Assembly (NCBI RefSeq): GCF_001677475.2
Contig: NZ_CP015229.1
From: Escherichia coli
Lineage (GTDB): Bacteria; Pseudomonadota; Gammaproteobacteria; Enterobacterales; Enterobacteriaceae
Strand: one strand, 5' to 3'
Length of the DNA stretch: 64,000 bases
Notes under the pieces: model-generated
The model's database searches: none
What the model saw: only the letters and a program-made list of their open reading frames with translations
What the model was told of the DNA's origin: nothing
Translations under genes and position numbers: made by a program
In this document: piece after piece, positions 61,024 through 61,085 of the stretch
How positions within the stretch are numbered: position 1 is the first letter of the stretch
Layout of the letters: each line of letters begins with the position of its first letter

Positions 61024-61085
61024 TGGCGGAGAGAGGGGGATTTGAACCCCCGGTAGAGTTGCCCCTACTCCGGTTTTCGAGACCG
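61024..61085 (-). tRNA. 5'-truncated tRNA-Ser(CGA) copy (serU-type 3' portion only): att junction of an integrated island
   Basis: Reverse complement reads GGTCTCGAAAACCGGAGTAGGGGCAACTCTACCGGGGGTTCAAATCCCCCTCTCTCCGCCA (anticodon loop to CCA end); the expected 5' acceptor/D-arm (GGAGAGATGCCGGAGCGG...) is replaced by unrelated sequence. Confidence 0.8.

Follow-up and report, generated by a model that had tools for sequence, protein, structure and literature searches.

When tyrosine integrases that target tRNA genes act at the anticodon-loop sublocation, the phage supplies the 3′ part of the tRNA. The site used by phage lambda itself is not a tRNA gene but lies between gal and bio. In E. coli, prophages and islands occupy serU in STEC, ETEC and UPEC, and the literature lists this gene for lambdoid and Stx prophages as well as for integrative elements (PMC7067040, PMC8767318, PMC8065619, PMC7545054). 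Two occupants are of particular relevance here. One is PAI-serU, the integrative element with the TcpC island of CFT073 and 536, a documented user of this tRNA locus (PMC7545054). The other is Escherichia phage SerU-LTIIb, the LT-IIb enterotoxin prophage of E. coli strain 41, whose record (KU052038.1) annotates a 62-nt pseudo-tRNA-Ser beside yodB as a pseudogene.

We analyzed a 64-kb stretch of E. coli DNA (all 64,000 nt of it are called the window) that contains an identical 62-nt fragment beside yodB. Positions 61024–61085 are the displaced native 3′ part of serU. Of the two att junctions, they belong to the one distal to the integrase, attR in the lambda convention, and make up its bacterial half. 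We consider it very probable that the displacing agent was a temperate phage, which integrated by site-specific recombination mediated by a tyrosine integrase. Below we describe the two sides of the junction, compare them with complete elements and free phages, and weigh other histories of the locus.

The truncated serU copy and its chromosomal flank

The window is colinear with K-12 from ∼1.988 Mb to serU at 2.0435 Mb. Its conserved chromosomal flank includes yodB (59924–60454, + strand), an open reading frame for a cytochrome b561 homologue that is colinear with K-12 yodB (b1974). Next comes the native yodB–serU spacer (60455–61023), which lies downstream of the tRNA 3′ end. Identity to K-12 is 98.9% up to 61085, and BLAST colinearity (98.7–98.9% identity) ends exactly at that base.

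Reverse-complemented, positions 61024–61085 (− strand) read CGGTCTCGAAAACCGGAGTAGGGGCAACTCTACCGGGGGTTCAAATCCCCCTCTCTCCGCCA. K-12 serU (b1975) is a 90-nt tRNA-Ser(CGA) gene, and the fragment is identical to its nt 29–90 at 62/62 positions. The retained segment thus abuts its native downstream flank. Its first base is the second one of the anticodon stem's 5′ strand, and it extends through CCA; nt 1–28 are missing. At 61086–61113, 3 of 28 positions match serU nt 1–28, as seen in an alignment of identical junctions (that of NZ_LR882057.1, locus L001, together with loci L005 and L006). The 62/62 match and the precise breakpoint exclude chance.

In the whole window, ARAGORN called leuZ, cysT and glyW, and no tRNA at 61024–61085. 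The Rfam tRNA model likewise gave no match at 61024–61085, either at the gathering score or with E values up to 10; with the latter setting, the sole match at the fragment was to the related tmRNA model, at 17 bits. No full cloverleaf was recoverable within 61024–61113, as a functional serU gene would have. A 31-mer of the tRNA 3′ end has no further copy anywhere in the 64-kb window. Lacking both a promoter and the 5′ half of the gene, the fragment is in all likelihood inactive as a tRNA. It retains the full attB–attP homology, and would take part in excision.

These results agree well with the first-pass annotation of this DNA, which had read the fragment as the 3′ part of a tRNA, from anticodon stem to CCA. 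The length given there, ∼61 nt, is in fact 62 nt, and the coordinates were exact. Replacement of the 5′ third by unrelated DNA is borne out by the 3/28 match, and the expectation that the copy would not be called as a functional tRNA by the silence of both ARAGORN and the Rfam tRNA model.

Several other features of the chromosomal side were seen. yodB and its surroundings (59582–60576) are present in the window and in K-12 and absent from CFT073 and NZ_LR882057.1, in both of which the spacer, from 60577 on, comes almost immediately after zinT. Beside fliE, a 5.1-kb insertion relative to K-12 occupies 25002–30104; K-12 has there the intG pseudogene of cryptic prophage PR-G. The insertion contains an IS3-family transposase pair (25051–26204), a truncated YedK-like ORF, an ORF of 272 aa that matched no family, and a 433-aa tyrosine integrase that is intact (28932–30233). 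It is probably the ‘first’ island of the earlier reading. The central part of fliC (14520–15381) gave no megablast match to K-12, and the neighboring segment 15381–25002 is merely 95.3% identical. This divergence suggests that the flagellar H type differs from that of K-12.

Phage DNA to the right of the junction

From 61086 rightwards the DNA is of phage type, with C4, isrK and anti-repressor sequences, as befits the phage side of an att junction. It begins with an AT-rich att arm (61086–61203, 27% G+C) common to many otherwise different serU prophages. The arm is kept in NZ_LR882057.1, SerU-LTIIb and phages ev099 and mEp332 up to ∼61203–61207, and the elements diverge beyond.

The arm is followed by an isrK-type sRNA (61227–61314, + strand), which scores 72.9 bits against Rfam RF01394 (gathering score 50) and has a terminator at its end. 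It overlaps the a1/b1 target sites of C4 (61227–61279), which score 42.7 bits against RF03163, slightly under the gathering score of 46.7. C4 itself, the antisense RNA of P1/P7-type immunity, lies at 61340–61421 (+ strand; RF01695, 59 bits, gathering score 45). The a1/b1 sites, the C4 RNA and a phage anti-repressor ORF are thus arranged in this order on one strand. The anti-repressor gene (61468–61955) has an ORF6N domain (Pfam) and matches the PHROG 2379 anti-repressor family with an E value of 3e-79. On the strength of these matches, 61227–61955 is predicted to be a P1-like immI-type module, placed at the very edge of the prophage. Modules of this type are found in Stx phages too.

The anti-repressor ORF is interrupted after codon 163 by an insertion sequence, into which it reads for 4 codons before a stop at 61971. 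An intact 186-aa homologue is present in NZ_LR882057.1, and identity to that locus stops at 61955. The inserted element (61956–64000, + strand) is ISEc10, of the IS21 family. It is 98–99.9% identical to annotated ISEc10 copies, and its transposase matches NCBIfam NF033546 (IS21) at 226 bits. Its left end, istA (62049–63548) and the start of istB are visible; the element continues past the window end, which falls 2.9 kb beyond the junction. The island DNA visible before ISEc10 amounts to 870 bp, all of it phage-like. The first-pass annotation had placed conserved chromosome on the yodB side and island DNA to the right of 61.09 kb. Both assignments stand, and the island can now be described more closely as a temperate-phage genome plus an IS.

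Complete elements in related genomes

The entire junction region is found in two complete genomes, NZ_LR882057.1 and NZ_CM135959.1. Both match at 98.0–98.5% identity, and in both the match covers the junction and continues across the C4 module and anti-repressor. In NZ_CM135959.1, the phage DNA of the att junction continues into tail genes, within a prophage of at least 17 kb that has tail-fibre, contractile-tail and lambda-like head genes. In NZ_LR882057.1, the junction leads into a defective prophage of 14.9 kb, whose genes include an exonuclease as well as replication and cI/cro-like genes. At its far end lie a DUF4224 gene, a frameshifted tyrosine integrase, an intact 90-nt serU 28 nt on, and mtfA. 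The DUF4224 gene is a likely excisionase, as indicated by a PHROG match (E value 4e-21) obtained with its homologue from vB_EcoM-606R7 (ON470580.1, hereafter 606R7). In 606R7, the far end has the excisionase, an intact tyrosine integrase and a regenerated serU adjoining mtfA. The 606R7 integrase matches PHROG integrase families, and its alignment with lambda Int (E value 8e-13) is full-length, taking in the N-terminal arm-binding domain. By analogy with these relatives, the genome analyzed here would have the same far end, with integrase and serU. Unlike the window, none of the three (NZ_LR882057.1, NZ_CM135959.1 and 606R7) has the ISEc10 insertion.

We rejected 606R7 and 689R5 as sources of an attP sequence. 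Both are prophage predictions that include mtfA and asnT, so what they show is attL. A search with the next prophage gene of NZ_LR882057.1 (DUF4376) as query matched NZ_LR882057.1 itself only.

The junction is common in the species. The junction 80-mer was found, at ≥80% coverage, in 866 of 5426 complete E. coli genomes (∼16%). An exact 40-mer across the junction had no match in a contig collection with one genome per species. The uninterrupted spacer-plus-serU sequence, at ≥80% coverage, gave 4131 records versus 5068 genomes; these figures are inconsistent, and were not used to count empty sites. The insertion of ISEc10 into the ORF6N gene recurs in GCA_002516285.1 and in Logan contigs from 7 samples. 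The exact junction and the IS together are absent from all complete RefSeq E. coli genomes.

Phage attachment sites and the point of strand exchange

Two free phages with complete genomes, Chris1 of Citrobacter and KpF5 of Klebsiella, bear the same 62-nt tRNA segment ∼65–110 nt past a tyrosine integrase gene. In both attP sites, identity to serU halts at nt 29, the same base as in the window. This bears out the earlier interpretation of the fragment as a partial repeat produced by a tRNA-targeting integrase. As judged from these alignments, the 62-nt block is the segment shared between such phages and their target. Some similarity extends further. The last 16 nt of the spacer (61008–61023) still resemble the integrase-side flank of the prophage, and window positions 61008–61085 match the far-end copy of NZ_LR882057.1 and 606R7 at 91% over 78 nt.

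Two changes alone separate the regenerated serU of NZ_LR882057.1 and 606R7 from the displaced fragment: nt 48 is G in place of A, and nt 59 is C in place of T. These two nucleotides pair in the variable arm, and the changes are compensatory. Presence of the variants in the regenerated gene indicates that its 3′ half is phage-derived, which would place the crossover within nt 29–47. From these two SNPs, then, we infer that strand exchange occurs in the anticodon stem-loop.

The att arm contains two copies of a direct repeat (family D1), at 61099–61120 and 61154–61175 (both + strand), copy 2 lying 55 nt from copy 1. The motif TCAA-N4-TTA occurs within them in direct orientation, at 61105–61115 and 61160–61170, and once inverted, at 61008–61019, immediately beyond the 3′ end of the tRNA. 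The attP of Chris1, though otherwise unrelated, repeats this spacing of about 95 and 55 nt, and that of KpF5 does so in part. This repetition and spacing make the two repeat copies candidate arm-type sites of the integrase, and the TCAA-N4-TTA motifs more generally possible binding sites for integrase or an accessory protein.

Proposed origin of the junction

Together, these data point to the following series of events. The attP of the incoming phage would bring its own copy of serU nt 29–90, and, downstream of the tRNA, ∼16 bases of partial similarity. The strands would be exchanged inside the anticodon stem-loop. The serU promoter and the 5′ 28 nt would thereby be joined to the phage-borne 3′ part, giving a working tRNA at the mtfA end, beside int and xis. 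What remains beside yodB would be the native 3′ part, now fused to the other phage arm: the attR junction seen in the window.

Could the junction instead have arrived in finished form, through homologous recombination with a phage or prophage bearing the spacer, the tRNA fragment and the arm? Free phages ev099, mEp332 and PhiR70_1 hold window positions 60746–61207 as one block, at 94–95% identity (2723–3183 in ev099, 2051–2511 in mEp332). The block consists of 278 bp of yodB–serU spacer, the 62-nt tRNA piece and the att arm, and it lies in the b region. The integrase of ev099 matches the PDB lambda integrase at 787 bits, and the lambda core GCTTTTTTATACTAA adjoins int. We had considered the ev099 and mEp332 matches as serU attP sites; the lambda Int and lambda core of ev099 and the 278 bp of chromosomal spacer rule this out. 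The same three features mark the block in ev099 as a fossil prophage–host junction, one that likely stems from aberrant excision at serU in an ancestor.

The existence of such blocks means that the junction travels in phage genomes, where it offers 278 bp of homology to the chromosome, and that ev099 carries one despite its lambda Int and lambda attP core is a point in favor of import. The sequence of the window argues otherwise. Its spacer and fragment are 98.9% identical to K-12 versus 94–95% to the phage-borne copies, so the left side is native. Moreover, import would still need an ancestral integration at serU, and would alter the history of the feature rather than its nature. We regard import as very unlikely.

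A related idea gives these blocks a larger role. The block at 60746–61207 in phages with lambda Int might be a mobile footprint of past aberrant excision. Homologous recombination with incoming phages, and not serU-specific integration, could then put such junctions in place or swap them. Tandem lysogeny might also make use of the orphan piece as a secondary attB. This picture is speculative, and in our judgment improbable.

A possible second serU copy in this lineage

Another possibility is that the junction is an orphan scar: the IS, or a deletion caused by it, may have removed the rest of the prophage along with the regenerated serU, so that no tRNA-Ser(CGA) gene is left. The distance from the junction to ISEc10 is indeed only 870 bp, the anti-repressor gene is interrupted by this element, and tRNA-Ser(CGA) is not known to be essential in enterobacteria. 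Yet contigs that share the ORF6N::ISEc10 insertion hint indirectly at an intact gene elsewhere in the genome.

A draft contig of GCA_002516285.1 (NJSK01000096.1) is 100% identical to window positions 51468–62017 and ends in the IS. Two Logan contigs (7 samples), also 100% identical to the window, span exactly 61025–61985. Their right end lies 30 nt into the IS, which gives k = 31 for the assembly graph; their left end lies 30 nt beyond tRNA nt 59. In NZ_LR882057.1, the 31-mer starting at 61024 occurs twice, and that starting at 61025 once. A k = 31 graph would therefore branch at just these break points if there were another copy of the serU 3′ part that has the nt-59 variant. The argument depends on how the contigs were constructed, with k calibrated from the IS end of the same contigs. 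Within that scope, the break points lend indirect support to an intact, phage-completed serU in this lineage.

The short-read contigs with the identical ORF6N::ISEc10 junction thus break where a second 3′ copy would branch, contrary to what an orphan scar predicts. Likewise NZ_LR882057.1, the one of the two complete same-junction genomes that was read to the far end, keeps an intact serU. We therefore see an orphan scar as highly improbable, and continue to favor a resident prophage with a regenerated serU at its far end.

Other occupants and random truncation

PAI-serU uses the same tRNA locus, which raises the question of whether the island is this integrative element and not a prophage. In CFT073, however, the yodB-side junction has merely 14 nt of the tRNA 3′ end (window 61024–61037), not 62. 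There it is followed by a different integrase and then by conjugation and TcpC genes, with no match to the window right of 61037. We rejected identity with PAI-serU on these grounds: the CFT073 match stops at 61037, and the window has no integrase at this place. The chance that the island is PAI-serU seems to us vanishingly small. Might an IS or an illegitimate deletion instead have truncated serU at random, with no site-specific recombination? An IS is indeed nearby, but its boundary is at 61956, not at 61085/61086, and the breakpoint is the base at which tRNA identity ends in independent attP sites, across three genera and in hundreds of genomes, which in effect excludes such an event and makes it scarcely credible.

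Comparison with known systems

Phage integration at serU thus remains by far the best account of the fragment. The junction is a structure of a routine kind, already annotated elsewhere, and involves no new biology. Core chromosome gives way to prophage here, at an integration hot spot that is well known in E. coli. For annotation, the junction delimits the island, keeps the pseudo-tRNA from being called as a gene, and explains assembly breaks.

The likeness to SerU-LTIIb is close. That prophage has the same yodB flank, 62-nt pseudo-tRNA-Ser and att arm, with 99.3% identity to window positions 60128–61202, and the junction 80-mer is matched at 100% in strain 41. Beyond ∼61203, SerU-LTIIb has side tail fibre genes and the toxin operon rather than isrK, C4 and the anti-repressor, and it has no IS. 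Chris1 and KpF5 have hosts of other genera, and their attP arms, apart from the motifs, are unrelated in sequence to the arm in the window. PAI-serU differs more broadly: it has a 14-nt terminal repeat versus 62 nt here, a different integrase lying on the yodB side, and content resembling that of conjugative elements. Set against lambda-type integration into tRNA genes, the segment duplicated here starts in the anticodon stem and reaches the tRNA 3′ end, and the integrase, as represented by relatives of this prophage, is a distant, full-length homologue of lambda Int.
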